64,000 nt of DNA from Candidatus Omnitrophota bacterium (GTDB lineage Bacteria; Omnitrophota; Gorgyraeia; Gygaellales; Profunditerraquicolaceae), in contig JAOAET010000051.1 of NCBI GenBank assembly GCA_026416665.1, positions 139,800 to 203,799 on the forward strand, given 5' to 3'. The notes beneath the pieces are model-generated. The model was given only the letters and a program-made list of their open reading frames with translations, was not told where the DNA came from and ran no database searches. Position numbers and translations under genes: made by a program. Shown here piece by piece: positions 32,087-63,522 of this stretch (positions are counted from its first letter, which is position 1; each line of letters starts with the position of its first letter).

Positions 32087-33718
<1,632 letters not shown>

Positions 33719-33732
33719 TTAGCTCCTTATTT

Positions 33733-33778: not shown

Positions 33779-33798
33779 TTTGTTTTCGGTCTGGTACT

Positions 33799-33827: not shown

Positions 33828-33863
33828 TTTTTTTATAAAAAATTTTAACCAACCAAACTGTCT

Positions 33864-35303: not shown

Positions 35304-35326
35304 ATCTTGTTTCTACTTTAATAAAT

Positions 35327-40248: not shown

Positions 40249-40265
40249 TTTTTTTGAACACTCTC

Positions 40266-40282
40266 TGCCTAATAATTAGGCA
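40266..40282. promoter_or_regulatory. perfect 17-bp palindrome TGCCTAATAATTAGGCA 18 nt upstream of the Fis-like gene start (candidate operator)
   Basis: Seen directly in sequence. T-run on the plus side only. Lies in the glnN/gltB intergenic region. Confidence 0.4.
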
Positions 40283-40332
40283 CAATTTTTTAAAAAACAA
40301 ACTCTTCATCACGCAACTACTTCATAAGAGTA

Positions 40333-44052: not shown

Positions 44053-45339
44053 TAAAATGTCTTCAGATCTTTTATCAGAAGCTAACAATGAGGAACAAGC
44101 TTCTTGATAAACCTTTAAAGCCTCAGGAAACGGTGAAAGGGTTCGTTCAAGGACATTCTGCAGAGCCGAAACAGCAATTCCGTAATTAGTAATAGGTACT
44201 TTTTGTGTCTTTGCTTTATGAATACGCCAAAGCATCTCACGCCGGGTAATCATACAACCGCCACAATGGATAATTAATTTGTAAACAGAAAGGTCATCAG
44301 GATAATCTCTTCCTGCACAGGTCTCAATAATTATATTTTTACCTGTTCTCATACGCAACCAACGTGGTATCTTTACTCTTCCTATATCATCTTCAATAGG
44401 ATGATGGCTACAAGACTCGGCAATAAGAACACGGTCATTATCTTCTAAAGCATGGATTTGGGCAGCACCACGGGCTAACTCTATTAAATCACCTTTTGCG
44501 CGAGCAAAAAGAATAGAAAAAGTTGTACACGCCACAGAAGCAGGTGTGTCACGCACCATCTGGTCTACTACTTGAGAATCACAAACCACCAGATTAGGAT
44601 ACTCTTTTAATTTCTTAAGTAAACTTATATATTCTACCTCGTTAACTACTACAGCTGCCTGATGATGGTCAAGTAAATCCCTAATGGTCTGAACCTGTGG
44701 CAAAATAATCCTTCCTTTTGGTGCTTCTTTATCAATAGGAACAATCAAAACCGCCAACCCCTGGGATGGAATGATGTCTCCTATAATAGGTGGTGGTCGA
44801 AAATAATCTTCAGGACATACTTCTAAAAGATGCTTTTTAAGAGGATTAACATAATTATCCCGATTCTTGTAATCAAGGCTTGATACCAAAATAAAACGTT
44901 TTACTTTTTCTTCCACTAACCGTAAAAAGTCCTCCGATGGTGGATTAACATCAATCTTATTAATTACTACAATAACTGGCAAAGAACGCTTTTTTGCCTC
45001 TTCCAGAACCTCGGACTCATATTCATTCCACTGATTTGCCTCTGTTACCAAAATAATCACATCTGCACGGTCAAATACCTTCTGCGTCTTTTTAATACGA
45101 AGTGACCCCAAAATAGAGCGGTCATCTAAACCTGCTGTATCTAAAAATACTACTGGACCAACAGGGAGAAGCTCCATTGTCTTTTCTACAACATCCGTAG
45201 TTGTCCCTGGCACAGGTGAAGTAATCGCTACATCTTGCCCAGCCACTAAATTAAGAAAACTTGACTTTCCTACGTTAGTTCTTCCAAATATTCCTATTTG
45301 TAATCTCAACGATTTAGGCGTCTTTTTCATTACACCCAC
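44038..45339 (-). CDS. hydF: [FeFe]-hydrogenase H-cluster maturation GTPase
   Basis: 433 aa. G1 GRTNVGKSS, G2 GTTTD. C-terminal Cys residues. Adjacent to hydE and hydG. Confidence 0.75.
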   Translation of the reverse strand: MGVMKKTPKSLRLQIGIFGRTNVGKSSFLNLVAGQDVAITSPVPGTTTDVVEKTMELLPVGPVVFLDTAGLDDRSILGSLRIKKTQKVFDRADVIILVTEANQWNEYESEVLEEAKKRSLPVIVVINKIDVNPPSEDFLRLVEEKVKRFILVSSLDYKNRDNYVNPLKKHLLEVCPEDYFRPPPIIGDIIPSQGLAVLIVPIDKEAPKGRIILPQVQTIRDLLDHHQAAVVVNEVEYISLLKKLKEYPNLVVCDSQVVDQMVRDTPASVACTTFSILFARAKGDLIELARGAAQIHALEDNDRVLIAESCSHHPIEDDIGRVKIPRWLRMRTGKNIIIETCAGRDYPDDLSVYKLIIHCGGCMITRREMLWRIHKAKTQKVPITNYGIAVSALQNVLERTLSPFPEALKVYQEACSSLLASDKRSEDILLKSK

Positions 45340-46283
45340 TCCTTGTTAGTTAAATTCAGTAAACTTTTTATCTGCGTGAAAGTAAGAGAATTTTTATGGT
45401 CATAAATCTTATAATTTTTACGGTAATTTGCCGGTGTGAAATTGCACATAATCACATTTGCCCCTGCCTTAAATGCCTCAATAACTGCTTTTTTTTGTCC
45501 AAGTGTAGCTAACGCAGTGGTTGCGGGAATATTTATTTTTCCAAGAAGAATACGCGTTAAAGCAATAACCTGATAAACCAGCAGAACATTTGGCGAAGGA
45601 TAATTGGCTAAAGGGGTCTGACTTTGCGCAAAAAAAGGTCCTACTGCCGCCATATCTACAGCTAAATTTTTCATAAGTAAGATGTCTTCAGCTAAATCTT
45701 CTGGTGTCTGGCCTGGTAAACCTATAATGTTTCCTGAACCTATCTGATAACCTATTTTTTTTAAAAAAAGCAGTGTCTTTATTCTCTGCTTTAATTTCTG
45801 TGAAGGATGTAAATATGCATAAAGCTTAGAATTAGCTGTTTCATGCTTAAGTAAGTATCTATCCGCTCCACTATCCCTTAAACAACGATATTCATCAAAA
45901 GACCTTTCTCCAATAGATAAGGTAATTGCAACCGCTGGAGCCCTTTTTTTTATCAGCTTAATAACTTTTGCCAAATCTTTAGCTTTTATACCAGGGTCGT
46001 CACCAGACTGAAGGATTACTGTTTTTATGCCTTTCTCTATAATTTTCTGTGCTGTTTTATCTATCTCCGACATACTCATTCTGTAACGTTTAAGTTTAGA
46101 ATTATCACGCCTTAAACCACAATAAAGACAGTTGCGAATACAGATATTAGAAAACTCAATAACACCTCTTAAATAAATCTCCCTGTCAAAATACATCCTA
46201 GTTAATTGTTCGGACTTGTGGATAAGTGATGAATATCGTTGTATATGAGTAAGACAATCTACTATTTCAGACTTGTTCATCAT
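45330..46283 (-). CDS. hydE: [FeFe]-hydrogenase maturase radical-SAM protein
   Basis: 317 aa. CX3CX2C motif CIRNCLYCGLRRDN. BioB-like fold. Operon context with hydG and hydF. Confidence 0.7.
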   Translation of the reverse strand: MMNKSEIVDCLTHIQRYSSLIHKSEQLTRMYFDREIYLRGVIEFSNICIRNCLYCGLRRDNSKLKRYRMSMSEIDKTAQKIIEKGIKTVILQSGDDPGIKAKDLAKVIKLIKKRAPAVAITLSIGERSFDEYRCLRDSGADRYLLKHETANSKLYAYLHPSQKLKQRIKTLLFLKKIGYQIGSGNIIGLPGQTPEDLAEDILLMKNLAVDMAAVGPFFAQSQTPLANYPSPNVLLVYQVIALTRILLGKINIPATTALATLGQKKAVIEAFKAGANVIMCNFTPANYRKNYKIYDHKNSLTFTQIKSLLNLTNKEWV

Positions 46284-46319
46284 TTAAGTTAAATTTAAAT
46301 TACGATTAACCTAGTTAAA

Positions 46320-47813
46320 TTAAAACCAGAGGTCACGTTCTCCTCTTTTAATTCTCTCTAAATATCCCAAAAATGCCTGATACAACTGCAAAGGAAAATC
46401 CTTTGGTCTTGTCCTAATTTCTTCTATTTCTCTAGCAATCAATGCCTCACCGATTTTTTTTGTTTCAAAACTTGCAAAATCTTCTAACCACTCCTGAAAG
46501 GTAAGCACTGCGTTTAACTTGCAGAAGCAACCTTCCTTACCACTACGCAAGAGATTCATAATGGTATCCCCTGTTCTTCCACAACGATACCCTGCAGTGC
46601 AAAAAGAGGTAATATAACCTAAATCTGCCAATTCCCTAATTACCTCATCCAGAGAACGACTATCTCCTAGGATAAACTGTTGTCGGAGTGGTTGCTGTTT
46701 AGTAAGACTCTGTGAATAGGAACCAACCCCTATTCGAGATGAGGCATCACGTTGAGTACACATTCCAATAACCGAACGAATAAATTCTGCTTTTTCACGA
46801 CAGGTGATAATAAGTCCTGCGTAAGGGATAGATAATCGCAAAACCGCAATAAGTTTTCTAAAGTCTTCATCCTTTACTCTATACGGTGGATTATTACAAA
46901 AAGGTGTATTAATCGCTGGTTCAATTCTCGGCACAGACACAGTGTGTGGCCCAACGCCAAAACACCTTTCTAAATCCCGTGCCTGAGCAAGCATACCCAA
47001 TACTTCATATCTCCAGTCATATAAACCAAACAGAGCCCCTATTGCCACATCATCAATTCCTGCTTCCATTGCCCGATGAAGCGAATAAAGCCTCCAGCGA
47101 TAATTTCCTTTAATAGTATCAGCAGGATGTAACTTTTCATAAGTTGATCTATGATATGTCTCTTGGAATACTTGATATGTCCCAATTCCTGCTTTTTTTA
47201 AAAGATATAAGTCCTGAATACTCATTGGTGCGGCATTAACATTTACTCTACGAATCTGCCCTATGCCGTTTCTTACTTTTATCTTAACACTATAAATTGT
47301 ACGCAGACTTTCACAAATATAGTTTATGTTGGTAAGTGGATGTTCTCCAAAAACCGCAATTACACGCTTATGACCTATGGTACCCGCTATTCTCTCTGTC
47401 TCTTGACGAATTTCTTCTTGGGTTAAAAACTTGCGTTGGATTTGGTGATTCTCTTTTCGGAAACCACAGTAAATACAGTTATTCACACAGAGATTAGAAA
47501 TATAAAGAGGGGCAAAGGTAACAATACGGTTATCGTAAACTTTTTTCTTAATTTCTTGGGCTGCTTCAAAAATTCTCTGCCAGATATCTTGCTCTGATAC
47601 CGCCATAAGAGAAGCTGCTTCTTCTAACTCCAAGGTTTGTATACTTCTTGCCTTCTCAATAATTTGTGAAATATACCCTCTGTCAGGTGGTTTTAGATTA
47701 GCTAAAATTTCTTCAATATTTGCCTTGGCTACAAAATCTTTTCCTTGGACGAGATATTTATTAACCTGTTCAGGTATGATAATTTTTTCTAAACTTATTT
47801 CTGTGTTAATCAT
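46320..47813 (-). CDS. hydG: [FeFe]-hydrogenase maturase radical-SAM tyrosine lyase
   Basis: 497 aa. CVNNCIYCGF radical-SAM motif. ThiH-like core. C-terminal Cys cluster CTAGYRCGRTGD. Confidence 0.75.
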   Translation of the reverse strand: MINTEISLEKIIIPEQVNKYLVQGKDFVAKANIEEILANLKPPDRGYISQIIEKARSIQTLELEEAASLMAVSEQDIWQRIFEAAQEIKKKVYDNRIVTFAPLYISNLCVNNCIYCGFRKENHQIQRKFLTQEEIRQETERIAGTIGHKRVIAVFGEHPLTNINYICESLRTIYSVKIKVRNGIGQIRRVNVNAAPMSIQDLYLLKKAGIGTYQVFQETYHRSTYEKLHPADTIKGNYRWRLYSLHRAMEAGIDDVAIGALFGLYDWRYEVLGMLAQARDLERCFGVGPHTVSVPRIEPAINTPFCNNPPYRVKDEDFRKLIAVLRLSIPYAGLIITCREKAEFIRSVIGMCTQRDASSRIGVGSYSQSLTKQQPLRQQFILGDSRSLDEVIRELADLGYITSFCTAGYRCGRTGDTIMNLLRSGKEGCFCKLNAVLTFQEWLEDFASFETKKIGEALIAREIEEIRTRPKDFPLQLYQAFLGYLERIKRGERDLWF

Positions 47814-53809: not shown

Positions 53810-54397
53810 TCAGAACCTTGCCTGCACAATCTTCCAGTTGATAACATTTAAAAAATTTTCTACATACTTTGCCCGCTCAAGTTGATAATCTATTAGATAA
53901 GCATGTTCAAAAACGTCTAAGACCAGAATAACTTTAGCAGTAACTAAATGTCCTACATCGTGTTCATTAACCCAGACATTAAATAACTGCTTACTCTGAG
54001 AGTCCTGATACAATAACACCCAACCAATACCTCTCATTAATGCAGTAGAGACAAAATCCTTCTTCCATTGTTCAAGACTTGTAAAATCCTCAATTATTTT
54101 CTTAGCTAATTCGCTCTTAGGGTCTAAAGGGTTATTTGCTCCAATATTTTCAAAGTATAACTCATGCAAACGCATACCATTAAATTCCCAACCAAATCGG
54201 CGTTTTAGTTCGGCAAAATCAACAGCCCTATCTTTTCCTTCTTTTTTTAATAAATTTAATTGTTCCAGAATAATATTTGTGTTTTTTACATAACCCTGGT
54301 ATAGTTTGAAATGATTTTCTAATAAGGTATCACTAAAACCTGCTGTGCCTTTTAAGTAAGAAAAATCTTTAGCTTGGTAAACTATGCTCTCACCCAT
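53810..54397 (-). CDS. Fe/Mn-family superoxide dismutase (divergent)
   Basis: 195 aa. N-terminus YQAKDFSYLKG.FSDTLLENHFKLYQGYVKNTN aligns to SOD helix 1. C-terminus DVFEHAYLIDYQLERAKYVENFLNVINW matches DxWEHAYY...NW. Last gene of the hyd operon. Confidence 0.65.
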   Translation of the reverse strand: MGESIVYQAKDFSYLKGTAGFSDTLLENHFKLYQGYVKNTNIILEQLNLLKKEGKDRAVDFAELKRRFGWEFNGMRLHELYFENIGANNPLDPKSELAKKIIEDFTSLEQWKKDFVSTALMRGIGWVLLYQDSQSKQLFNVWVNEHDVGHLVTAKVILVLDVFEHAYLIDYQLERAKYVENFLNVINWKIVQARF

Positions 54398-54437
54398 AGC
54401 GCCTCCTTTTTTAGATACTGTGTATTGGTCTTCAATT

Positions 54438-56237
54438 TTATATTTTTACAGTTTTGTTTAATAAAAAAGGGGTATCTAGTTCATTTCTTTCATGGTAATG
54501 TGTATGTAACAACTGATGAGAAAGTTCAGAAAGAGGTTTACCTAAAAACTCTTGATAAATCTGTTTTATCGCAGGATTCTCATGGGATTTACGAACAGAT
54601 TTACTGCGGTCTTCCTCGTAAATTGCCTCCATTCGTTTTTGTCTTGTCTGTGTATCTGTAGGAATTGGTTGTCCACCACCACCCAAACACCCACCAGGGC
54701 AGGTCATTATTTCAATAAAAGTATAAGGAGATTTACCATTCTGAACCTCCTCTAATAAAACACGGGCATTACTTAAGGAATTCGCTACGGCTACTTTAAG
54801 TAACAATCCATTTAAATCTAACTCGGCAGTTTTTATTCCCTCAAGGCCTCTTACTTGTTTAAATTCAACATCACTAAGTGGCTGATTAGTTAAAACTTCG
54901 TAGGCGGTACGTAGAGCTGCTTCCATTACACCACCTGTTGCTCCAAATACAACCGCCGCACCTGTAGAAATACCAAGAGGCTCGTCAAATTCTTCATCTG
55001 CTAAACGAGTAAAATCAATACCTGCTTCTTTCATCATGCGAGCAGCCTCTCGCGTAGTTAAAACGAAATCCACATCTACAAAATGTTCTTTTTCATCTAA
55101 ATTCATAACATTTTTCCAATACCTGAAGGCTGCATCCATCTCAGGCCTATGTGCCTCAAATTTTTTGGCAGTACAGGGCATTATTGATACAACTACTATT
55201 TTACGTGGGTCAATACCTATTTTTTTTGCATAGTAAGTTTTTGCCACTGCTCCAAACATCTGTTGTGGCGATTTACAACTGGAAATGTGCTTAAGCACTT
55301 TAGGATAGAAATGCTCGGCAAACTTAATCCAACCAGGAGAACAAGAAGTAATCAGCGGTAAAGGTCCTTTATTTTTAATCCGATGAATTAATTCGTGTGC
55401 TTCTTCCATAATAGTAAGGTCAGCAGAAAATTGGGTATCAAATACTTTTTTAAACCCAAGCCTACGTAAAGCAGCAACCATCTTACCCGTTATACGACTT
55501 CCTGCAGCCAACCCAAATTCTTCACCAATAGAAGCCCTTACTGCCGGAGCTGTTTCTACCACTACAAATTTTTGGTTATCTGACAATGCCTTCCAGACCC
55601 CTTGAATATGATAATTCTCAACTAAAGCGCCCGTCGGACAAACCAAAAGACATTGTCCACAATTAACACACGAAGAATTTCCTAACCCTCTATCCATAAA
55701 AGTGCTGATACGCGTGCGTTTACCCCGGTTTATCGCCTCTATAGCCCGCACAGATTGAATTTTTTCACAAACTGCAGTGCATCTACGACAGAGAATACAT
55801 TTATTAGGGTCACGAACAATAGCCGAAGAACTTTGGTCTATGGGTAAAGATATGCTGGTTTCTTTAGAAAACCGCACTCTTTGGATTCCCATCTCAAAAG
55901 CAAGACGGCGCAGTTGGCAATTCTGGTTACGTTCACAGACAAAACAGTCTTGAGGATGGCTTGCCAAAAGTAGTTCTAAGTTTAAAAGGCGCCCTTTACG
56001 TACACGCTCGGTGTTAGTTCGAATTACCATTCCGTCTGTAACTTCTGTGACGCAAGCACGCATTAGCGTCTTTGCTCCTTCCACCTCTACAAGGCAAATA
56101 GAACAAGAGGCTTCTTCGCTTACTCCGTCTAAATAACAGAGATTAGGAATAATAATACCTAACTCTTCACAAGCCTTCAAAATAGTAGTGGCTTTAGCAA
56201 TCTGGTATTCTTGTCCATCAATAGTGATTTTGGGCAT
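54438..56237 (-). CDS. hydA: [FeFe]-hydrogenase catalytic subunit HydA (multimeric/bifurcating type) with a variant L1 motif
   Basis: 599 aa. N-terminal [2Fe-2S] ferredoxin-like domain, then [4Fe-4S] Cys clusters. H-cluster motifs L2 MPCTAKKFE and L3 EIMTCPGGCLGGGGQP are canonical. L1 reads TSCSPGW (from DNA, plus 55336-55350) instead of TSCCPxW. Confidence 0.8.
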   Translation of the reverse strand: MPKITIDGQEYQIAKATTILKACEELGIIIPNLCYLDGVSEEASCSICLVEVEGAKTLMRACVTEVTDGMVIRTNTERVRKGRLLNLELLLASHPQDCFVCERNQNCQLRRLAFEMGIQRVRFSKETSISLPIDQSSSAIVRDPNKCILCRRCTAVCEKIQSVRAIEAINRGKRTRISTFMDRGLGNSSCVNCGQCLLVCPTGALVENYHIQGVWKALSDNQKFVVVETAPAVRASIGEEFGLAAGSRITGKMVAALRRLGFKKVFDTQFSADLTIMEEAHELIHRIKNKGPLPLITSCSPGWIKFAEHFYPKVLKHISSCKSPQQMFGAVAKTYYAKKIGIDPRKIVVVSIMPCTAKKFEAHRPEMDAAFRYWKNVMNLDEKEHFVDVDFVLTTREAARMMKEAGIDFTRLADEEFDEPLGISTGAAVVFGATGGVMEAALRTAYEVLTNQPLSDVEFKQVRGLEGIKTAELDLNGLLLKVAVANSLSNARVLLEEVQNGKSPYTFIEIMTCPGGCLGGGGQPIPTDTQTRQKRMEAIYEEDRSKSVRKSHENPAIKQIYQEFLGKPLSELSHQLLHTHYHERNELDTPFLLNKTVKI

Positions 56238-56280
56238 AGTAGACTCCTTGCAAACTCTTGTTAAACGAAAGAAAAATGAT

Positions 56281-59200
56281 TTACTCAGTTTTTACATCAC
56301 AACGCAAACACCGAAGTGTCTCTAAATGTGCCTGATTTTCTGTCAGTCCCAATGAAATTTCTTTAAAGTTGTTCAACCTTTGGGAAAGTTTTAATCTTTG
56401 CCCTGTTTGTTTCTTAGCAGCAGCTGGTTTAGGGGGAACAGACATAGAATAAGCAAATTTACCTGTTAACAGACAAGACCTGTCCTCATGCATAAGATAA
56501 CGGTCAATGGCAAAAGCAGCTGTTTTGCCGTCAGCCATAGCCTCTACGGCTGTAGCAGGTCCTCTCACTAAATCGCCACCAGCAAATACCTTATCCACTG
56601 TGGTCTTAAGGGTAAAACGATTAACTAATACTGTGCCATCTTTGTTACAAACTAATCCAAACTGACGTAAGAAGTCCGAATCTACTGATTCACCTATCGC
56701 AGTAAGTATTGTATCAGCCTCTATCTCAAAAGTTTCTTCTGTAGGAATAGGTCTTCTTCTTCCTGAGGCATCAAAATCTCCAGGCACCATCTTTTGAACA
56801 AGTAATGCACGCACACAACCTTTGTTATCGGATAGAATTTCTTTAGGGGCTGCATAGAAAACAAATCTAACACCCTCTCGCTGTGCTTCTTTTATCTCAT
56901 CTTCATTAGCAGGCATATCATCGTGGCCCCTGCGATAAACAATAGTAGGTTGAGCGCCAAATCTTAAAGCAGTGCGCGCAGCATCTACTGCAACATTACC
57001 CGCACCTATAATTATTACCTTTCTACCAATATTTGGTTTCTTTTTCTGGGCAACTGCCTCAAGATAACTAACACCGCTGGTAACTCCTTTTAGATTCTCT
57101 CCAGGAATACCTAAAGGTACACTCTTATAAGCACCTGTAGCTAAAAACACTGCATCGTTCTTACTGGCAATAATGCGTAAGGAGTCAGCGTCAACCTTTG
57201 TATTAAACACAAATCTTACCCCTAGTTTTTTAATAAAACTTATTTCTTTGGCAAGAACTTTTTTAGGAAGACGATATTCAGGGATACCATAACGTAAGAT
57301 TCCTCCTGCCTCAGCAAACTTTTCATAAACTGTTACCGAATGGCCCAGACGAATAAGATAAAACGCTGCTGTCAACCCCGCAGGCCCTGCGCCTATAATA
57401 GCAACTTTTTTCTTAGTAGAAGCAGGTTTTTCTGCAAATAACTTTTTAATAATGGTTAATTCCTTTTTCTTTTTATAAATAGTATCTGCTACAAACCTAT
57501 GAACTTCTCCCTGCGATACAGGTTCATCAATATCTTCTCTACGACAACGTAATTTGCAATGGAAGTGACAAATTCTACCTGAAGAAGCAGGAAAAGGATT
57601 GTCTCTGTAAATCAACTCAAATGCCTGGCGTAATTTACCTTCTTTTAACAATGTTAGATAGCCAGGAATATTTATGTGTAAAGGACAAGAATTTTCACAA
57701 GGGGCAAGAAAAAGCTTAAGACATACACCTGCATCACAACGTTTTTCTTCAATATGCTGTTCATACTCCTGACGAAAATACTTTAGAGTTGTTAAAACAG
57801 GATTAGGAGCGGTCTGACCTAATCCACAAAGTGCAGAATCTTTGATACCATTTCCTATCTCCTCTAATAAAACCAAATCTTCCTGCTCAGCTTGACCTGC
57901 AGTAACCTTACGAAGAATATTTAATATCTGATATAAACCTTCCCTACAGGGAGTACACTTACCGCAGGATTCGGACATAACAAATTCGGTAAAGTAGCGC
58001 GCAACATCCACCATACAATTGTCCTGGTCCATAACTACCATTCCACCTGACCCCATTATTGCACCTAGACTATTTAGTGATTCGTAATCTACAGGCGTAT
58101 CAAACAAAGAAACCGGAATACAGCCACCGGAAGGACCACCTGACTGCACTGCCTTTACTTTCTTACGTGTTCCTGTGCCTGCACCAATATTGTAAACTAA
58201 TACTTTTAAAGGCTGGCCCAAAGGAAGTTCCACCAGACCTGTATTTTTAACCTTGCCAACAAGTGAGAATACCTTGGTACCACTTGAGGTAGCAGTTCCT
58301 GTTTGGGTAAACCATTCACCACCTTTAGCTATAATTACTGGAATATTACACCAAGTTTCCACGTTGTTGATGGTGGTTGGCTTATCGTATAGACCTTTCT
58401 GGGCAGGAAATGGTGGACGTAATCTGGGTCTTCCAGATTTTCCTTCAATAGAGGCAATCATAGCTGTTTCTTCTCCACAGACAAAAGCACCCGCACCTTC
58501 AACTAAACGCAGACTAAAAGAAAATTCCGTTCCCAAGATTTTGGAACCCAATATGCCATACTCTTCAGCCTGCTTTATTGCCTGCTTTAGACGCAGAACC
58601 GCTAAAGGATACTCTGCTCTAATATAAATTATTCCTTCTTTTGCACCCATTGCATAAGCGCCAATAATCATACCTTCTATAAGCATATGTGGGTCTGACT
58701 CTATTTCATTACGGTTCATATAGGCACCTGGGTCTCCTTCATCAGCATTACAGATTACATACTTTTGGTCTGAGACTACCTGTTTCATTAATTCCCATTT
58801 TCTGCCAGTAGGAAAACCTGCTCCACCTCTTCCGCGTAGTTTAGATTTCTTCACCTCTTCAATTACTGATTCAGGAGTAAATTTGGTTAATACCTTATAA
58901 AGAGAATAATAACCACCAACAGCAATATATTCTTCGATATCTTCAGGATTAATTAGACCAGCATTGCGCAATACAATCTTCTTTTGCCATTTGAAAAAAT
59001 CAAGCTCGTTCCAAAGAGGAATATGCTCAAGCCCTTGTCCAAATTCTATCTTTTCGGTCAGATGGTCCCATGTATCTATCCTACATAGACACAATCGTTC
59101 CAAAATAGAACCTTTTTTAAGTTCTGAGATTATACGACTAACATCTTTTTCCGATACTTTTTTAAGAATTACCAAGGGCTTACCCGGCAGGTGAATATTA

Positions 59201-59424
59201 ACCAGTGGCTCTTGGGCACAGAAACCAAAGCAACCAGTTTTGGTTATTTGCCAGTTGAGTTTGTTTTTGGCAATAGTTTTCTGAAAAGCTGTGTATACTT
59301 TATCGGCATCATTACCAATACCACAGGTACCCATCCCTATGGCAATACGAATGTTTTGGGAAAGATATTTCTTTAGACCCCGGGCTTTTATTTCTTGTAA
59401 TTGCTCAAGATTAGTTATTTTCAT
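56281..59424 (-). CDS. hydB: fusion of a HydB/NuoF-like flavoprotein subunit with a C-terminal GltD/NfnB-like FAD/NAD(P)H oxidoreductase domain
   Basis: 1047 aa. N-terminal thioredoxin-like [2Fe-2S] domain. NuoF core (GRGGAGFPTGRKW, ESCGKCTPCREG). Ferredoxin-like Cys motifs. Then a GltD-type module (CENSCPLHINIP...; KKVAIIGAGPAGLTAAFYL; VIIIGAGNVAVDAARTALRFGA). Confidence 0.75.
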   Translation of the reverse strand: MKITNLEQLQEIKARGLKKYLSQNIRIAIGMGTCGIGNDADKVYTAFQKTIAKNKLNWQITKTGCFGFCAQEPLVNIHLPGKPLVILKKVSEKDVSRIISELKKGSILERLCLCRIDTWDHLTEKIEFGQGLEHIPLWNELDFFKWQKKIVLRNAGLINPEDIEEYIAVGGYYSLYKVLTKFTPESVIEEVKKSKLRGRGGAGFPTGRKWELMKQVVSDQKYVICNADEGDPGAYMNRNEIESDPHMLIEGMIIGAYAMGAKEGIIYIRAEYPLAVLRLKQAIKQAEEYGILGSKILGTEFSFSLRLVEGAGAFVCGEETAMIASIEGKSGRPRLRPPFPAQKGLYDKPTTINNVETWCNIPVIIAKGGEWFTQTGTATSSGTKVFSLVGKVKNTGLVELPLGQPLKVLVYNIGAGTGTRKKVKAVQSGGPSGGCIPVSLFDTPVDYESLNSLGAIMGSGGMVVMDQDNCMVDVARYFTEFVMSESCGKCTPCREGLYQILNILRKVTAGQAEQEDLVLLEEIGNGIKDSALCGLGQTAPNPVLTTLKYFRQEYEQHIEEKRCDAGVCLKLFLAPCENSCPLHINIPGYLTLLKEGKLRQAFELIYRDNPFPASSGRICHFHCKLRCRREDIDEPVSQGEVHRFVADTIYKKKKELTIIKKLFAEKPASTKKKVAIIGAGPAGLTAAFYLIRLGHSVTVYEKFAEAGGILRYGIPEYRLPKKVLAKEISFIKKLGVRFVFNTKVDADSLRIIASKNDAVFLATGAYKSVPLGIPGENLKGVTSGVSYLEAVAQKKKPNIGRKVIIIGAGNVAVDAARTALRFGAQPTIVYRRGHDDMPANEDEIKEAQREGVRFVFYAAPKEILSDNKGCVRALLVQKMVPGDFDASGRRRPIPTEETFEIEADTILTAIGESVDSDFLRQFGLVCNKDGTVLVNRFTLKTTVDKVFAGGDLVRGPATAVEAMADGKTAAFAIDRYLMHEDRSCLLTGKFAYSMSVPPKPAAAKKQTGQRLKLSQRLNNFKEISLGLTENQAHLETLRCLRCDVKTE

Positions 59425-59951
59425 TTTGCCTTTCCCCTTCTGGCTATTCTTGATACCAGTTCTTTTAATTTGTTTTCTGTCATATGGCTATAAATTACAC
59501 CGTCAATCTCTACTACCGGAGCCAATGCACACTGTCCAAAACATGCCACTGTTTTAATAGTGAACTTTTTATCTGCAGTAGTAAGGAATACTTTTTCTCC
59601 CTCCTGGGATTCCTCTTCTTTTATTCCCAGCATCTTTTTAATAAACTCCAATAGCTCTTTAGAACGGCGGGTATGGCAGGCTGTCCCGCGACAGATAATG
59701 ATGGAATGTTCTCCTTGTGGTTTGAGATTAAAAAATGCATAAAAGGTAACTACACTGTAAATACGAGAAAGAGGAATAGCTGTCTTTTTTGATATATAAG
59801 CAAGAACTTCTTCGGGAAGATATTTATGTTTATTAAGATTCTGAACTTCTTCTAATATGCTTAAAAGTCCTCCGGGTTTTCCAACATACTTATTTATTAC
59901 TGCGTCTACTTTAGCTAAGGAAAATTCTTCTTTCGTAATAGTCTTACCCAT
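59421..59951 (-). CDS. hydC: NuoE/HydC-like [2Fe-2S] thioredoxin-fold subunit
   Basis: 176 aa. CRGTACH...CFGQCALAP. 4-nt overlap with hydB. Confidence 0.75.
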   Translation of the reverse strand: MGKTITKEEFSLAKVDAVINKYVGKPGGLLSILEEVQNLNKHKYLPEEVLAYISKKTAIPLSRIYSVVTFYAFFNLKPQGEHSIIICRGTACHTRRSKELLEFIKKMLGIKEEESQEGEKVFLTTADKKFTIKTVACFGQCALAPVVEIDGVIYSHMTENKLKELVSRIARRGKAK

Positions 59952-59976
59952 ACTTTACCCTTTCAAAATTAAAGTT

Positions 59977-61395
59977 TTATTTTTTACTGTTTAGATATAA
60001 ATCAATGGCCTTTGCAGCTTTACGACCCGCACCCATTGCAGTAATAACCGTAGCTGCACCTGTTACCACATCTCCTCCTGCAAATACACCTGCAAGAGAT
60101 GTCTGTCCATTCTCATCTGCCTCAATCTCACCTTTCTTTTTTACCTTTAATCCCGGAGTGGTTCGCGAAATAATCGGATTGGGAGTGTTACCAATAGCTA
60201 CAATTACCTCATCGACATCTAACAAGAACTCAGAACCTGCTATGGGAATTGGACTTCTACGGCCTGAGGCATCGGGTTCACCTAATTTCATCTTAATACA
60301 TTCTACTTGTCTTACCATCCCTGAATCATTACCCAAATAGCGAATAGGATTAGTAAGTAAGCAAAAATCAATTCCCTCTTCTTTAGCTCTTTCAATCTCT
60401 TCTTGACGTGCAGGCATTTCTGTTTCTGAACGTCGATAGATTAAATATACATGCTCAGCGCCCAAACGCAAAGCAGTTCTTGCAGAATCCATAGCGACAT
60501 TGCCACCACCAATAACTGCAACAAATTTACCCCGTTTTACCGGTGTATCATACTCAGGGAACTTATAAGCCTGCATTAAATTAACACGTGTTAGAAACTC
60601 GTTTGCCGAATAAATTCCACCCAAATTTTCGCCTGGAATACCCATAAAATTAGGAAGACCTGCACCCGCACCAATAAAAATAGCTTGAAAACCTTCTTTA
60701 AAAAGGTCTTCTATAGTCAATGCTCTACCAATTAGGGCATTAGTTACAAAATTTACTCCTAATTCTGCTAACTTTTCTATCTCCGCCTGAACAATTGCTT
60801 TAGGTAGACGAAATTCTGGTATCCCGTACACTAACACTCCCCCTAACTTATGGTAACCTTCAAAGACAGTAACCTCATAGCCCATTTTGGCTAATTCTGC
60901 AGCACACGTTAATCCTGCTGGCCCTGACCCAACCACTGCTACCTTCTTATTTTTCTTCGGTACGCTTATTAATACTGCTGTCTTTTGTTTTTTTCTATTA
61001 GCTAAATCCCAGTCAGCTAAAAACCGTTCTAGTCTTCCAATAGAAATAGGGTCGCCCATTTTTTTCATCACACAAACTGCCTGACACTGTTCTTCCTGGG
61101 GGCAAACACGACCAGTCATACAAGGCAGGGAATCGTTTTCGTGAATTATATCAATTGCCTTTTGGAACTCCTTCTGACGCAGGGCCTTTATAAAGGAAGG
61201 TATATCTATGTGAACCGGACAGCCTTCTACACAAGGTTTCTTCGCACATTGAAGACAACGCGATGCTTCTTCAATTGCCTCTTGTTCGTTATAACCTAAG
61301 GGAACCTCATTAAAATTTTTAATGCGCTCTACAACTGGCTGTTGGCGCATTGGAACTGCTTTTTTCTTAATTTCCATAATATATAGCTTTTGCAA
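59977..61395 (-). CDS. NfnB/GltD/SudA-like NAD(P)H:ferredoxin oxidoreductase large subunit
   Basis: ~465-472 aa. N-terminal 2x[4Fe-4S] Cys motifs (CLQCAKKPCVEGCP...). FAD site KVAVVGSGPAGLTCAAEL. NAD(P)H site VAVIGGGNVAMDSARTALRLGA. Confidence 0.75.
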   Translation of the reverse strand: MQKLYIMEIKKKAVPMRQQPVVERIKNFNEVPLGYNEQEAIEEASRCLQCAKKPCVEGCPVHIDIPSFIKALRQKEFQKAIDIIHENDSLPCMTGRVCPQEEQCQAVCVMKKMGDPISIGRLERFLADWDLANRKKQKTAVLISVPKKNKKVAVVGSGPAGLTCAAELAKMGYEVTVFEGYHKLGGVLVYGIPEFRLPKAIVQAEIEKLAELGVNFVTNALIGRALTIEDLFKEGFQAIFIGAGAGLPNFMGIPGENLGGIYSANEFLTRVNLMQAYKFPEYDTPVKRGKFVAVIGGGNVAMDSARTALRLGAEHVYLIYRRSETEMPARQEEIERAKEEGIDFCLLTNPIRYLGNDSGMVRQVECIKMKLGEPDASGRRSPIPIAGSEFLLDVDEVIVAIGNTPNPIISRTTPGLKVKKKGEIEADENGQTSLAGVFAGGDVVTGAATVITAMGAGRKAAKAIDLYLNSKK

Positions 61396-61421
61396 AATTT
61401 TACTTTCTTAAATAAGTAATA

Positions 61422-62234
61422 TTATTTTTTACAGCAATAACATTCCTCCTCTCTATAGGTATCCAGACGTTTTATCAAAAGGTCAAAATTAACTTGATGG
61501 CCATCAAAGTCAGGGCCATCCATACAAGTAAAATAGGTCTTACCACCCACCTCTACACGACAGGCACCGCACATACCCATTGCACAAACCATAAGCGAAT
61601 TAAGACTAACTATTGTTTTTATATTATAAGGACGTGTCAATTCTGCCACTGCCTTCATCATTACCGCTGGACCAATAGCGAAGATAACAGAAGGCTTGTA
61701 ATCTTCGGCAATAAGTGTCTTTAAAATATCTGTGACAAAACCTTTTTGCCCGTAAGAACCATCATTGGTAGTAATAAATAACTGGTCTGTCACCAAACGC
61801 ATCTTTTCTTCCCAGAAGACATATTCTTTGGAACGATAACCAATAATAGCAGTAACAACGTTACCTTTTTCTTTTAGTGCTCGTGCAATAGGAAAAACAG
61901 CAGCAACACCAATACCACCGCCAACTAAAATAACTTTACCATAAAGTGCTATTTCTGTTGGATTACCTTGAGGACCCAGCACATCTAAAAGATAATCACC
62001 TTTTCTTAATGAAGCAAGAAGTTGTGTTGTTTTGCCTACCTCTTGGAATACCAAGGCTATAGTGCCTTGATTGCGTTCAAAATCCGCAATCGTCAAAGGT
62101 ATACGCTCTCCCTGTTGGTGTATTCTAACAATTACAAATTGCCCTGGCTGTGCTTTAGCAGAAATAATCGGTGCCTCTATTAAAACATAGTGTGTCTTGG
62201 AAGCTAGTTTGTATTTATCAATTATCTTAAACAT
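61422..62234 (-). CDS. NfnA/SudB/PyrK-like FAD plus [2Fe-2S] electron-transfer subunit
   Basis: 270 aa. FNR-like FAD/NAD-binding core. C-terminal MVCAMGMCGACRVEVGG...C [2Fe-2S] motif. Confidence 0.7.
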   Translation of the reverse strand: MFKIIDKYKLASKTHYVLIEAPIISAKAQPGQFVIVRIHQQGERIPLTIADFERNQGTIALVFQEVGKTTQLLASLRKGDYLLDVLGPQGNPTEIALYGKVILVGGGIGVAAVFPIARALKEKGNVVTAIIGYRSKEYVFWEEKMRLVTDQLFITTNDGSYGQKGFVTDILKTLIAEDYKPSVIFAIGPAVMMKAVAELTRPYNIKTIVSLNSLMVCAMGMCGACRVEVGGKTYFTCMDGPDFDGHQVNFDLLIKRLDTYREEECYCCKK

Positions 62235-62244
62235 ATTACTATTT

Positions 62245-63435
62245 TTATTGTTGTGCTAAGCGATAAGTATCTTGTGCTATCTGTAATTCCTCATTCGTAG
62301 GGATAACAAAAATTTTAACCAAAGAATTATCTGCACTAATTAGACACTCTTGCGTAGGCAAAGCAGTGTTGTTTTTTGTCTCATCTAAAATTATACCTAA
62401 CTGTTTAAGCCCTTTTAAACAAAGTTCTCTTATAAATGCATTATTTTGCCCTATACCACCTGTAAAGATAAGCGCATCCACTTCACCTAATACCGCAAAA
62501 TATGCCCCGATATATTTTTTTATACGATAGCAGAATATCTCTATAGCAATCCGAGCACGTTCTTCTCCTTTTCTACTTGCTTCAACTAAATTGCGCATAT
62601 CGTTAGAAACACCAGAGATTCCTAACAGACCACTACGTTTATTAAGGATTGCGTTAATTTCGTCTATAGAATATCCTTTGTCTGCAAGATAGAATATAAT
62701 CGCAGGGTCAATATCTCCTGAGCGTGTACCCATCACCAATCCTTCTAAAGGGGTAAGTCCCATACTGGTATCAACAGACCTTCCTTTTTCAACAGCAGTG
62801 ATGCTACAGCCATTTCCCAAGTGACAACTTATTAAGTTTGCCTGTGGTTTATTAAGAAGTAAGGAGGCTCTTCTGCAAACATATAGATGGGATGTCCCAT
62901 GGAATCCATATTTGCGTATCTTGTATTTTTTATAAAAATCAAAAGGTATAGCATATAAATAAGCCTGAGGAGAAAGGCTTTGGTGGAAGGCTGTATCAAA
63001 TACTGCTACCTGAGTAGCATAAGGTAAAAATTTCTTACACGCCATAATTCCCATCAGGTTCGGTGGATTATGTAATGGCGCTAATTCTGAAAATTTTTTT
63101 ATCTGAGCAATTACCTCATCACTAATAATCACAGAAGAAGTAAACTCTTCGCCTCCATGAACTACACGATGGCCAATACCCTTAATCTCTTCTGGCGAAG
63201 ATACTGCTCCTTTCTGAGAATCAGTCAATAATGATAAAATAATCATTACCCCTTTTTCATGGTCAATAATTTTCTCTTTTGCCTCTATCTGACCTTGTTC
63301 ACTTTTATAGGTAACAAAACTGGTTTCTTCTCCTATCTTTTCAATAAGACCTTTGGCGAGGACCTTTTCTTCGGGCATGGCAAAAAGCTGGAATTTTATA
63401 GAGGAGCTACCTGAATTTATTACGAGGATTTTCAT
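62245..63435 (-). CDS. ackA: acetate kinase
   Basis: 396 aa. N-terminus MKILVINSGSSSIKFQLF is diagnostic. Confidence 0.9.
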   Translation of the reverse strand: MKILVINSGSSSIKFQLFAMPEEKVLAKGLIEKIGEETSFVTYKSEQGQIEAKEKIIDHEKGVMIILSLLTDSQKGAVSSPEEIKGIGHRVVHGGEEFTSSVIISDEVIAQIKKFSELAPLHNPPNLMGIMACKKFLPYATQVAVFDTAFHQSLSPQAYLYAIPFDFYKKYKIRKYGFHGTSHLYVCRRASLLLNKPQANLISCHLGNGCSITAVEKGRSVDTSMGLTPLEGLVMGTRSGDIDPAIIFYLADKGYSIDEINAILNKRSGLLGISGVSNDMRNLVEASRKGEERARIAIEIFCYRIKKYIGAYFAVLGEVDALIFTGGIGQNNAFIRELCLKGLKQLGIILDETKNNTALPTQECLISADNSLVKIFVIPTNEELQIAQDTYRLAQQ

Positions 63436-63522
63436 GGGAGATTCTCTTTAAAAAACGTTACCTTATTCTACCATACTTTAGCGTATGGTCAAGCTTACTT
63501 AAAACTCAAAAGACTTCTTTTA

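Follow-up and report, generated by a model that had tools for sequence, protein, structure and literature searches.

An Omnitrophota [FeFe]-hydrogenase whose HydB subunit carries an NfnL/GltD-like module in place of the ferredoxin-like domain

Gene content of the locus

The window, a stretch of 64,000 nucleotides from a Candidatus Omnitrophota MAG, holds seven co-directional ORFs on the minus strand that encode AckA, NfnA, NfnB, HydC, a HydB fusion, HydA and a SOD-like protein (Table 1). The close spacing and common direction noted in the original prediction are borne out by the ORF coordinates: from ackA to the sod-like gene, the intergenic distances are 10, 26, 25, -4 (an ATGA overlap, in which the hydC stop and the hydB start share 4 nt), 43 and 40 nt. 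Since these gaps are short and a scan of them found no terminator-like site between the seven genes, a single transcript running from ackA to sod is plausible; we grade it no higher because the promoter scan (23 found versus 30.3 expected from shuffled sequence) fell below expectation and the terminator scan likewise did not exceed it.

Table 1. Features of the hydrogenase locus (positions in the window)
Feature	Position	Strand	Basis or content
Promoter-like site, TTGACC-16-TAGAAT with TG	63465..63492	-	consensus match; 87-nt gap upstream of ackA
ackA, acetate kinase, 396 aa	62245..63435	-	PF00871 528 bits; TIGR00016 537 bits (cutoff 293)
nfnA, NfnS-type small subunit, FAD/NAD-binding and [2Fe-2S], 270 aa	61422..62234	-	PRK06222, PF10418
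nfnB, NfnL-type large subunit, 2x[4Fe-4S]/FAD/NADPH, 472 aa, TTG start	59977..61395	-	TIGR01316
hydC, NuoE/BfuC-like [2Fe-2S] subunit, 176 aa	59421..59951	-	PF01257, 141 bits
hydB fusion, 1047 aa	56281..59424	-	Trx-like [2Fe-2S], NuoF core, Zn hinge, permuted NfnL-like module
HydB 1-125, thioredoxin-like domain, B5 [2Fe-2S] site	59050..59424	-	aligns with BfuB structure N-termini
HydB 150-557, NuoF core: FMN/NAD(H)/[4Fe-4S]	57754..58977	-	profile matches, structure alignment, conservation
HydB 557-568, hinge site H557, C563, C568 (with C470)	57721..57756	-	99-100% conserved
HydB 572-1047, NfnL/GltD-like module	56284..57711	-	2x[4Fe-4S], FAD, NADP(H) sites
HydB 1012-1047, permuted tail with RCLRC pair	56284..56391	-	counterpart of NfnB/NfnL N-terminus
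hydA, 599 aa, M3-type [FeFe]-hydrogenase	54438..56237	-	[2Fe-2S], three [4Fe-4S], H-cluster; NF040763, PF02906, PF02256
Fe/Mn-SOD-like protein, 195 aa	53810..54397	-	Sod_Fe_C 97 bits; Sod_Fe_N 23.2 (below cutoff 27)
hydG	46320-47813	-	Radical_SAM+BATS
hydE	45330-46283	-	Radical_SAM
hydF	44038-45339	-	HydF_dimer/HydF_tetramer/MMR_HSR1

Judged by its domains and motifs, the locus encodes a trimeric [FeFe]-hydrogenase of the HydABC/Bfu lineage with an intact HydA H-cluster site. HydA matches NF040763 with 877 bits (cutoff 765) and bears the H-cluster motifs TSCSPGW (297), MPCTAK (353) and EIMTCPGGCLGG (509), while HydC carries CRGTAC (87-92) and CFGQC (137-141). The genes for the H-cluster maturases (44038..47813) lie 6.6 kb downstream. 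Just upstream of the hydrogenase genes, the predicted Nfn pair proved by profile matches to be canonical NfnAB: NfnA scores 381 bits with PRK06222 (cutoff 220) and has Cys217/222/225/237, and NfnB scores 602 bits with TIGR01316 (cutoff 472), shows no permutation and carries C47-x2-C-x4-C-x3-CP, the Glu ligand motif LERF (122-125) and YRR (320-322). The SOD-like gene, called a divergent SOD, diverges in sequence and not in direction. Its NCBIfam equivalog scores fall far under cutoff, and its segment LENHFKLYQGYV, aligned to HHQKHHQAYV of 1ma1, has lost the first His metal ligand. The gene also adjoins a metal-uptake cluster.

A permuted NfnL-like module replaces the B3/B4 domain of HydB

HydB had been read as a fusion in which a GltD/NfnB-type FAD/NAD(P)H module with two [4Fe-4S] sites follows a NuoF-like part, and both profile matches (Complex1_51K 191-362, NADH_4Fe-4S 473-557, Fer4_20 559-652 and Pyr_redox_2 672-966) and conserved motifs agree. 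In the B5 domain, C34, C65, C69 and C114 are kept in 89-96% of fusions (n=130). The NuoF core contains an FMN loop (G198-W210), an NAD(H) motif (C225-R238) and the B1 [4Fe-4S] ligands C487/C490/C493/C533, and reaches a Foldseek TM-score of 0.96 (normalised to target) with Caldicellulosiruptor saccharolyticus (Csac) NfnB (9bov_B). The hinge residues H557/C563/C568 align to H524/C529/C534 of Thermococcus sibiricus (Tsi) NfnB, and in Bfu enzymes this Zn/'B2' site precedes the ferredoxin-like domain (PMC12018979).

In the Omnitrophota protein, the GltD-like module starts at residue 572, directly behind this hinge; the domain search found no Fer4 family match and the motif search no CxxCxxCxxxCP motif in the 1047 residues. 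Because HydB lacks these ferredoxin signatures and the module begins at the hinge that precedes the ferredoxin domain, we conclude from the encoded sequence that an NfnL/GltD-type module has replaced the ferredoxin-like 2x[4Fe-4S] (B3/B4) domain. The predicted module is thus present, but it occupies the place of B3/B4 and is not extra to a standard HydB. Its cluster ligands are C576, C580, C619, C623, C627, H642, C1039 and C1042, its FAD site is a GxGxxG motif (678-683), and its NADP(H) site comprises 807-812 plus Y830-R831-R832. The FMN, NAD, FAD and NADP (Y830-R831-R832) motifs are conserved across the fusion proteins (n=130), so that the C-terminal part does have FAD/NAD(P) motifs on alignment, with the Y-R-R motif and both Rossmann motifs conserved at 97-99%. 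A preference for NADP is predicted from the YRR motif and from homology.

Among solved structures, the module scores highest with residues 102-567 of Csac NfnA (9bov_A, 393 bits), followed by Tsi NfnA (351) and StnC (345), with lower scores for Pyrococcus furiosus (Pfu) NfnL (327) and GltD (205 bits). BLASTP aligned the HydB tail (1015-1045) to residues 23-53 of the window's NfnB (45% identity, E 1e-7), and HMMER aligned it to Pfu NfnL 15-48. C1039 and C1042 in this tail are 100% conserved (n=130 fusions), and the tail is confidently modelled (pLDDT 87-90) in a predicted structure of the HydB single chain, modelled apart from HydA and HydC. Foldseek aligned 480-485 columns to 9bov_A and 8oh5_C versus 429 to NfnL. 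The module is therefore a circularly permuted NfnL-like unit of the type found in the A subunit of Stn/NfnABC transhydrogenases. Nor is it a stray GltD, since a complete gltB-gltD glutamate synthase pair is encoded separately within the window. At the aligned proximal-cluster ligand position HydB has His642, unlike either of the states characterised so far: StnC has a strictly conserved Lys, and NfnB a Glu.

The fusion is widespread, and its conserved unit is hydC-hydB-hydA

The fusion is a full-length single ORF in all 80 of the 80 best genome loci and recurs in 120 protein clusters (61-100% identity, 100% coverage), with lengths of 1042-1057 aa by protein record and 1043-1062 aa among ORF calls whose start was not over-extended. 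It occurs in Omnitrophota, Bacteroidales, Spirochaetia, Planctomycetia and Ignavibacteriota, among others; a protein from a Candidatus Omnitrophica MAG (P0001) is 100% identical, and complete genomes or cultured isolates with the fusion include Bacteroidales bacterium CF (CP006772) and Seramator thermalis. The probability that assembly or sequencing errors joined two neighbouring genes into this ORF is practically negligible: nothing was found in favour of such an error, and against it stand the same uninterrupted ORF in 120 independent protein clusters and 80 genome loci and the invariant H557, C563, C568, C576 and C580 at the junction. We rejected this explanation on the recurrence of the ORF, complete genomes and cultured isolates included.

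A neighbourhood survey of the 80 loci returned the same fusion in many lineages with hydC-hydB-hydA kept. Adjacent hydC was found in at least 72 of 79 loci, a lower bound because the automated count missed the hydC of L002, and adjacent hydA in 68 of 79; only these three genes form the conserved unit. Although nfn genes beside multimeric hydrogenase genes are known in Clostridium (PMC6405883), nfnAB adjoins the fusion in only 5 of 80 loci, at two different positions, which speaks against the predicted membership of the Nfn pair in the hydrogenase system. The ackA association is lineage-specific (2 of 80 loci: a direct neighbour in L002 alone, while in L051 ackA follows hydA at a distance of 1.2 kb downstream), and no SOD gene was found near the fusion in the 80 loci; the SOD-like gene probably has no relation to the hydrogenase genes next to it. 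These counts, and the lost His ligand, leave the suggestion that ackA and SOD tie the hydrogenase to acetate formation and oxygen protection without support.

Relation to known enzymes

The architecture had been thought to match none of the known trimeric HydABC, NfnAB, Stn-type and GltD-fused group A2 enzymes. It is, however, both common and on record: a GltD-carrying HydB is noted in the Vallitalea guaymasensis L81 genome paper of 2018 (PMC6163223), and an mSystems 2024 paper (PMC11406978) defines a 'sub-type I BfuABC' for Hydrogenedentota and several other phyla. Both follow the same domain logic as the Omnitrophota trimer; in sub-type I, as here, DPD_II (2x[4Fe-4S]) and an FAD/NAD(P) domain replace B3/B4 of the B subunit, HydA is M3a-type and a BfuD subunit is absent, whereas the upstream ackA-nfnAB is particular to the Omnitrophota lineage. 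The possibility raised earlier that the architecture is common and already characterised holds for its frequency and in-silico description; biochemical or structural characterisation of any member was not found in the papers searched or in the PDB. The architecture is thus widespread and already described in silico, and the Omnitrophota copy is of a biochemically uncharacterised kind.

With canonical HydABC (Thermotoga maritima, Acetobacterium woodii, Thermoanaerobacter kivui; 7p5h, 7q4v, 8a6t) the enzyme has in common HydA, HydC and a HydB core of B5 domain, FMN/NAD site, B1 cluster and Zn hinge (543-613 bits; Foldseek TM-scores 0.83-0.92, normalised to target), but the ferredoxin-reducing B3/B4 end of those enzymes gives way here to an NADP(H)/FAD module. 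Both halves of HydB match StnABC/NfnABC (Nfn-Bfu; 8oh5, 9bov, 9n5u) best in sequence and fold; these transhydrogenases combine a BfuBC-type core with the same permuted module. In Stn, this module sits on the A subunit and feeds the mid-potential path, B3/B4 is retained and there is no H-cluster; in the fusion, it replaces B3/B4 on the B subunit, beside a HydA that is a true hydrogenase. NfnAB/NfnSL (4ylf, 5jca) is the family to which the two genes upstream canonically belong; compared with it, the module shares homology with NfnB/NfnL but is permuted, has His for the Glu ligand and lacks an NfnA partner in most genomes. The HydB of the non-bifurcating Syntrophomonas wolfei Hyd1ABC type likewise lacks the B3/B4 clusters, yet there the domain is simply absent, often along with B5, while here B5 is kept and a new redox module added. 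Group A2 [FeFe]-hydrogenases with a GltD partner and HytA-E/FdhA are also proposed or shown to use NADP(H). In group A2 enzymes, GltD is linked to HydA and not to the NuoF-like subunit; in the NADP-specific HytA-E/FdhA, the NuoF-like subunit confers this specificity by itself, and a GltD module is missing.

A proposed link between H2 and both pyridine-nucleotide pools

Direct wiring of the hydrogenase to NADP(H), as predicted, is the interpretation that makes most sense. We propose, with a confidence near the midpoint, that the enzyme links H2 to NAD(H) and NADP(H) through a low-potential arm that ends in NADP(H) and not in ferredoxin. Electrons would move between the H-cluster and the HydB FMN via the HydA clusters and cluster B1, and NAD(H) would react at this FMN. 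In Bfu enzymes, the canonical low-potential arm runs from the HydC [2Fe-2S] cluster via B3/B4 to ferredoxin (PMC10482914, PMC12018979). Here, the third arm would pass through the two module clusters, putatively close enough to the HydC cluster or B1 for electron transfer, to FAD and NADP(H), and H2 would therefore be linked to both pools according to 2 H2 + NAD+ + NADP+ <-> NADH + NADPH + 2 H+. The module FAD would be a simple two-electron/one-electron converter like that of StnC, and not a second bifurcating flavin; the FAD of the homologous Stn/NfnABC module is experimentally non-bifurcating (PMC10482914, PMC12018979). A docking site for ferredoxin may still exist at another place, such as close to the His-ligated cluster.

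It is unlikely, if still worth weighing, that the enzyme is instead an uncoupled, NAD(P)H-dependent non-bifurcating hydrogenase like the HydABC of S. wolfei, which depends on NADH and not on ferredoxin, so that here the module would be an independent entry or exit for NADPH, the two nucleotides would lack energetic coupling, and transhydrogenase side activity may occur. Loss of B3/B4 goes with non-bifurcating behaviour in S. wolfei Hyd1ABC (PMC11406978), and coupling is not thermodynamically required, because the potentials of both nucleotide couples are near or above that of H2. Yet HydB retains H557, the His of the hinge (100%), as well as the B5 domain at its N-terminus, Bfu-specific features that are missing from non-bifurcating homologues (PMC12018979), and the module joins HydB where the low-potential arm has its mobile hinge and not on the HydA side, where the mid-potential donor of Stn enters.

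We consider it improbable that the enzyme bifurcates twice, with the module FAD acting like that of NfnB beside the FMN/[Fe-S] site, four substrates (H2, NAD, NADP and ferredoxin) and ferredoxin docking at the module clusters. The module does share homology with bifurcating NfnB, at 38% identity to the copy encoded in the window, the Arg of GIPEYRLPK that touches FAD N5 in NfnB is kept as R718 (100%), nfnAB adjoins the fusion in those five loci, and the mSystems 2024 paper (PMC11406978) speculates on this possibility. But the module is nearer to, and permuted like, that of Stn/NfnABC, which keeps the same Arg with a non-bifurcating FAD and a single exit path; NfnB needs the [2Fe-2S]/FAD of NfnA as a second path, and NfnA is not nearby in 75 of 80 loci; and the NfnB Glu ligand thought to hold the proximal cluster at low potential is His in HydB. 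The predicted second flavin-based bifurcation site finds no support in a module closest to a non-bifurcating relative and, at most loci, without an NfnA-like partner. Far less probable still is service to another substrate, as a glutamate synthase donor, a sulfide-dehydrogenase-like polysulfide reductase or an NADH-specific module: GltD/SudA/NfnB-family proteins are functionally diverse, and a link to glutamate is speculated on for Vallitalea in the 2018 paper (PMC6163223), but the window has its separate gltB-gltD pair, a gltB-like gene never recurs beside the fusion in the 80 loci, and the NADPH-type signature is conserved.

If the low-potential arm does end in NADP(H), a Bfu-type gated core would have no obvious energetic rationale in H2 uptake, because NADP(H) is not a low-potential acceptor. 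In H2 evolution, NADPH (about -380 mV in vivo; redox potentials from PMC9304861, Table 1) would supply the lower-potential electrons, the role of ferredoxin in canonical HydABC, and by Nernst arithmetic on these potentials NADH re-oxidation would be possible up to roughly 100 Pa H2. In the Omnitrophota lineage only, the upstream NfnAB would tie this NADPH to reduced ferredoxin and NADH; ackA would mark an acetate-forming fermenter.

A run of seven genes with a predicted hydrogenase

The original prediction of seven co-directional genes was confirmed: seven ORFs, all on the minus strand, lie within positions 53810-63435 and are separated, in transcription order, by gaps of 10, 26, 25, -4, 43 and 40 nt. 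From the sequence, it is plausible that they form one transcript. The 87-nt gap 5' of ackA holds a promoter-like site and no terminator-like sites were found between the seven genes, but neither scan gave a total above the shuffled expectation, so the idea of one transcript is neither strengthened nor weakened by them. The entire window was also scanned against Rfam, with zero matches. The ORF immediately upstream of ackA resembles HtpX/M48 peptidases over their C-terminal part alone, and the gene may be truncated or its start misassigned; a full M48 peptidase is encoded elsewhere in the window.

Features of the window and of three related loci
Feature	Position (strand)	Length	Match or content
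ackA		396 aa	PF00871, 528 bits
nfnA		270 aa	PRK06222, 381 bits (cutoff 220)
nfnB		472 aa	TIGR01316, 602 bits (cutoff 472)
hydC		176 aa	PF01257
hydB fusion	56281-59424 (-)	1047 aa	Bfu-type B core and NfnL/GltD-type module
hydA		599 aa	NF040763, 877 bits (cutoff 765)
SOD-like gene	53810-54397 (-)	195 aa	C-terminal SOD domain match
ORF upstream of ackA	63523-63948 (-)	141 aa	HtpX/M48 peptidases, about profile positions 190-263 of 298
Genes directly downstream of SOD-like gene	49281-53558 (-)		TonB-dependent receptor, ZnuA, ABC ATPase, ABC-3 permease
Maturase cluster	44038-47813 (-)		hydG, hydE, hydF
Nitrogen-assimilation block	24468-42525 (-)		two P-II genes flanking amt, NAD synthase, CPSase small and large chains, CTP synthase, gltD, gltB, Fis-type HTH protein, GS type III
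gltB	35327-39883
gltD	33864-35303
V/A-type ATPase genes	15898-24014 (-)		D, B, A, E, I, C/AC39; then universal stress protein, PTS EIIA-2
Full M48 peptidase	7952-9070
ORF between HD-domain protein and M48 peptidase	5994-7925 (-)	643 aa	no Pfam match at E<=1e-10
Related locus L039	15030-22079		hydC, hydB fusion, hydA, nfnA, nfnB, second canonical hydrogenase
Related locus L053	15025-22053		same gene order
Related locus L060	8248-15354		same gene order

HydA carries all three H-cluster motifs, TSCSPGW at 297-303 (P1, pattern TSCxPxW), MPCTAK at 353-358 (P2, MPCxxK) and EIMTCPGGCLGG at 509-520 (P3, ExMxCxxGCxxG), and scores above the curated cutoff of the multimeric M3 [FeFe]-hydrogenase model. 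Its domains (Fer2_4, NADH-G_4Fe-4S_3, two Fer4 motifs, Fe_hyd_lg_C and Fe_hyd_SSU) give the pattern of one N-terminal [2Fe-2S] and three [4Fe-4S] clusters, and the protein is of the M3a type, without a C-terminal [2Fe-2S]. We conclude that HydA is by sequence the catalytic subunit of a group A multimeric M3 [FeFe]-hydrogenase, with predicted H2 turnover. HydC has the four Cys of a NuoE-type [2Fe-2S]. The maturase genes are clustered on their own, 6.6 kb downstream of those for the hydrogenase; the interval holds a methyltransferase gene and a 120-aa ORF without Pfam match, beside metal-uptake genes.

An NfnL-type module replaces the ferredoxin arm of HydB

Residues 1-572 of the HydB fusion are a typical B subunit of the HydABC type (Bfu) lineage. 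In a sequence search against solved structures, this half scored highest with the Acetomicrobium mobile (Amo) NiFe-HydB (650 bits) and Thermococcus sibiricus (Tsi) NfnB (633), followed by NfnB of Caldicellulosiruptor saccharolyticus (Csac, 624), A. woodii HydB (613), StnB (591) and T. maritima HydB (543 bits), and the best Foldseek TM-score of the fusion, normalised to the target, was 0.96. BfuB is defined by the domains IPR011538, IPR019575, SLBB (IPR019554) and ferredoxin-type IPR017896, for which Pfam served as a proxy. The NuoF FMN-binding and [4Fe-4S] domains are present (PF01512, 154 bits; PF10589, 113 bits); the SLBB domain PF10531 was not matched at E<=1e-3, yet it is recorded for some homologues and the region aligns unbroken to BfuB structures. 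Across an alignment of 130 fusions, the ligands of the B5 [2Fe-2S] (C34/C65/C69/C114), the FMN loop, the NAD(H) motif and the ligands of cluster B1 (C487/C490/C493/C533) are all kept, and the hinge site C470/H557/C563/C568, which aligns with Tsi NfnB C437/H524/C529/C534, is conserved at 99-100%. In Tsi NfnB this site stands before the ferredoxin-like domain, and the hinge His is described as specific to Bfu B subunits (PMC12018979).

What follows the hinge is different. The 1047-aa protein has neither a Fer4-family Pfam match nor a CxxCxxCxxxCP motif that would denote the ferredoxin-like B3/B4 domain; instead, Fer4_20 (559-652) and Pyr_redox_2 (672-966) come directly after NADH_4Fe-4S. The predicted GltD-type module is thus present, but it is not an extra on a complete HydB: it begins at residue 572, right after the hinge, and with no B3/B4 behind that point we conclude that it replaces the ferredoxin arm.

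The C-terminal half scored best with the NfnL-like insert that Nfn-Bfu enzymes carry in their A subunits, namely residues 102-567 of Csac NfnA (393 bits), Tsi NfnA (351) and residues 102-567 of StnC (345). Scores were lower with NfnL of Pyrococcus furiosus (Pfu, 327), with NfnB of T. maritima (308) and with true GltD (205 bits). Its last 35 residues (QRLNNFKEISLGLTENQAHLETLRCLRC) align with the N-terminus of NfnL and match residues 23-53 of the NfnB encoded in the window (45% identity, E 1e-7), while residues 564-977 match NfnB 43-468 (38% identity). Compared with NfnB, the module is thus a circular permutation, exactly as in StnC and NfnA, and the CxxC pair completing the cluster site stands at its end (C1039 and C1042, 100% conserved in the 130 fusions). 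In a single-chain AlphaFold model (pTM 0.71), the permuted tail has a pLDDT of 87-90.

The module is predicted to hold two [4Fe-4S] clusters on eight ligands, seven Cys and His642. The FAD-proximal cluster has its non-Cys ligand at position 642, which is His in 93% of the fusions and throughout the window's clade; its equivalent is Glu in bifurcating NfnB and, in StnC, the strictly conserved and functionally essential Lys170 (PMC10482914). Fusion families more distant from the window's clade have Lys or Glu here. Conservation of the FAD and NADP(H) motifs, Y830-R831-R832 among them, is 97-99%. We also considered the Arg that contacts FAD N5 in NfnB as a sequence marker of a bifurcating FAD and rejected it, since non-bifurcating StnC has kept this Arg as well; the difference between the two is positional. 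A role of the module as the cell's glutamate synthase subunit was likewise rejected, since complete gltB and gltD genes are encoded separately in the window.

The fusion is widespread and may have arisen repeatedly

An assembly fusion of two genes, a possibility that the original prediction had itself raised, was rejected on the basis of the homologues. The best 120 clusters (at 90% identity) cover 98-100% of the query at 61-100% identity with lengths of 1024-1057 aa, and belong to Omnitrophota, Margulisiibacteriota, Bacteroidales/Rikenellaceae and 'Deltaproteobacteria'. When one genome per species was scanned, 347 related stretches emerged, and all of the best 80 encode the fusion as a full-length single ORF. 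Among these 80 are complete genomes and cultured strains (Bacteroidales bacterium CF, Seramator thermalis) as well as MAGs of Paludibacter and Proteiniphilum; Spirochaetia, Planctomycetia, Ignavibacteriota and FCPU426 are covered too. One recorded protein, from a Candidatus Omnitrophica MAG, is 100% identical; an exact-sequence look-up in assemblies gave no match.

Clustering at 50% added full-length NuoF-GltD fusions of only 35-56% identity. In a rough NJ tree without support values, the NuoF cores of the fusions occupy at least three separate positions, and this sequence comparison hints that the NuoF-GltD fusion arose repeatedly. Eight divergent fusions at 35-48% identity (P0122, P0129, P0136, P0141, P0147, P0164, P0190 and P0203) are placed apart from the window's clade in that tree; they have Lys or Glu, not His, at the proximal-cluster ligand, and some also have a ferredoxin-type motif.

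The conserved unit is the HydC/HydB/HydA trio

In 79 loci with the fusion, hydC adjoins it in at least 72 (a lower bound, as our script missed the hydC present in L002) and hydA in 68, most remaining loci being cut by contig ends. By contrast, the original prediction had drawn nfnAB, ackA and a SOD into the hydrogenase system, and conservation does not bear this out. The upstream pair is by sequence NfnAB: both proteins score above their cutoffs, the genes are 26 nt apart, and NfnB has the Glu-ligated cluster motif LERF (122-125) and the NADPH motif YRR (320-322). Genes for nfn next to those for multimeric hydrogenases are known in Clostridium (PMC6405883). Here, nfnAB is adjacent to the trio in only five loci. 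It lies upstream in L001 and L002, the two closest Omnitrophota relatives (72-75% identity), and downstream of hydA in two loci of Spirochaetia and one of FCPU426, in each case followed by a second, canonical hydrogenase; judged by gene order in L039, L053 and L060, nfnAB thus stands between two hydrogenases. The N-terminal domain of the second HydB in these three loci is a separate ORF of 127-138 aa. No nfnAB was found in about 9.5 kb of upstream sequence in each of three other Omnitrophota loci, L004, L008 and L013. The ackA gene recurs in L002 and, 1.2 kb off, in L051, and in no other locus, and no SOD gene stands beside the trio in any locus compared.

The last gene of the run did not qualify as a canonical Fe/Mn superoxide dismutase. 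Its C-terminal SOD domain is matched, but Sod_Fe_N scores 23.2 against a Pfam cutoff of 27, and the best NCBIfam equivalog reaches 117 against 300, all SOD equivalog cutoffs lying far above. When the protein is aligned to archaeal SODs, Leu stands in place of the first metal-ligand His (KLYQGYV vs KHHQAYV), while the other three of the four ligands (His, His, Asp, His) are retained. The gene may belong with the downstream metal-uptake genes, and its product may be a SOD homologue that is metal-related or non-catalytic, and not the hydrogenase's partner in oxygen defence.

The commonest neighbour of the fusion trio, at about 13 of the 79 loci, is a second HydC/HydB/HydA trio, which suggests that the fusion enzyme is not redundant with an ordinary HydABC. 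Beyond this trio and lineage-specific synteny, the 79 loci revealed no functionally informative recurrent partner. In many Bacteroidales, a second trio lies directly upstream of the fusion-type trio and has a short HydB of 394-400 aa without N- or C-terminal cluster domains, resembling non-bifurcating types (L011, L014, L020, L021, L055, L064, L067, L075 and L080, at about 5.4-9.5 kb; L048, at 0.2-3.7 kb; on the opposite strand in L005).

Relation to described enzymes

The architecture, which the original prediction took as possibly undescribed, is already in the literature, so we do not present it as a discovery. In a 2024 in-silico study of Hydrogenedentota, sub-type I BfuABC is defined by the replacement of B3/B4 with DPD_II and a C-terminal FAD/NAD(P) domain, together with an M3a-type BfuA, and homologues are named from Spirochaetota, Pseudomonadota, Planctomycetota, Verrucomicrobiota, Kiritimatiellota and Thermodesulfobacteriota (PMC11406978). 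The window's enzyme has both the domain replacement and the M3a-type HydA, and our fusion loci include Spirochaetia and Planctomycetia relatives, from phyla that the study also names. The window thus appears from sequence to encode a known architecture, here in Omnitrophota, with a predicted function.

The formal Bfu definition requires a ferredoxin-type 4Fe-4S domain in BfuB (Schut et al., 2022; PMC9304861). The HydB fusion shares with the family the FMN and [4Fe-4S] domains and the hinge His and three Cys, and is paired with a NuoE-type BfuC, but it lacks the ferredoxin-type domain with clusters B3/B4 and would for this reason probably have been missed by that Bfu census. With the Nfn-Bfu transhydrogenases (Stn/NfnABC), it has in common the circularly permuted NfnL-like NADP(H)/FAD module. 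There, however, the module belongs to an A subunit without an H-cluster, whereas here it forms the C-terminus of the B subunit next to a HydA with all H-cluster motifs, and the Lys ligand of StnC (K170) is His642 in the window's HydB. Two points may go beyond the accessible published descriptions: that the module is permuted and of the Stn type, and that the proximal-cluster ligand is divided among His, Lys and Glu. Outside subscription-only papers, a literature search for biochemistry or structure of a HydB-GltD hydrogenase returned only in-silico mentions, and no PDB chain spans both HydB halves, either by sequence or by fold.

A possible NADH- and NADPH-coupled hydrogenase

In Bfu enzymes of known structure, electrons of the third substrate pass through the A-subunit clusters and B1 to FMN, where NAD(H) reacts; the low-potential arm leads from C1, the [2Fe-2S] of the C subunit, through B3/B4 to ferredoxin, and the C-terminal domains gate it as they move (PMC12018979). 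In the HydB fusion, the mobile post-hinge domain would be the NADP(H)/FAD module. The simplest wiring would then have one path between the H-cluster, the HydA clusters, B1 and FMN with NAD(H), and a second path between C1, the two module clusters, FAD and NADP(H). The predicted link of the hydrogenase to NADP(H) is plausible given the conserved FAD/NADP(H) motifs; the double bifurcation that was envisaged with it is not supported. Two bifurcation centres have also been speculated for sub-type I BfuABC (PMC11406978). However, the FAD of the homologous module in StnC and Tsi NfnA is non-bifurcating with a single exit path (PMC10482914; PMC12018979), and most loci lack the NfnA-like partner that would supply a second path. 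We therefore favour a module FAD that would act as a converter and not as a second bifurcation site.

The fusion HydABC could be a ferredoxin-independent, obligately coupled NADH + NADPH confurcating hydrogenase or, in reverse, an H2-driven reducer of both pools, in which a Bfu flavin/[Fe-S] core has a low-potential arm ending in pyridine nucleotide and tuned by the His-ligated cluster; we offer this full reading tentatively and consider it rather unlikely as it stands. From in-vivo potentials of about -280 mV for NADH, -380 mV for NADPH and -500 mV for ferredoxin (PMC9304861), our own Nernst arithmetic allows H2 evolution only below about 3 Pa from NADH alone, up to roughly 100-150 Pa from NADH + NADPH, and up to about 0.15 bar from NADH + ferredoxin, so a coupled NADH/NADPH enzyme would occupy an intermediate niche. 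Electrons of ferredoxin could enter the NADPH pool through NfnAB in the window's lineage.

The window alone is not new to specialists, but the mechanistic question is real. The HydB fusion is a natural experiment on the Bfu mechanism, in which the FMN/B1/C1 core and the hinge are kept and the target of the low-potential arm is changed, and the existence of cultured carriers (Seramator thermalis, Bacteroidales bacterium CF, Vallitalea guaymasensis L81) makes the coupling directly testable. Ferredoxin-independent coupled NADH + NADPH confurcation would, if true, be a new hydrogenase reaction class. Classifiers that use HydA only label such enzymes 'group A3, NADH/ferredoxin-bifurcating', as do Omnitrophota genome papers, and many 'group A3 bifurcating' hydrogenases of Omnitrophota, Bacteroidales, Spirochaetota and others would then be mis-assigned in metabolic models. 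Should the B subunit be unable to bind ferredoxin and use NADP(H) in its place, electron flow and H2 thresholds as now inferred would have to be revised, which would touch many uncultured anaerobes as well as cultured Bacteroidales and Vallitalea.
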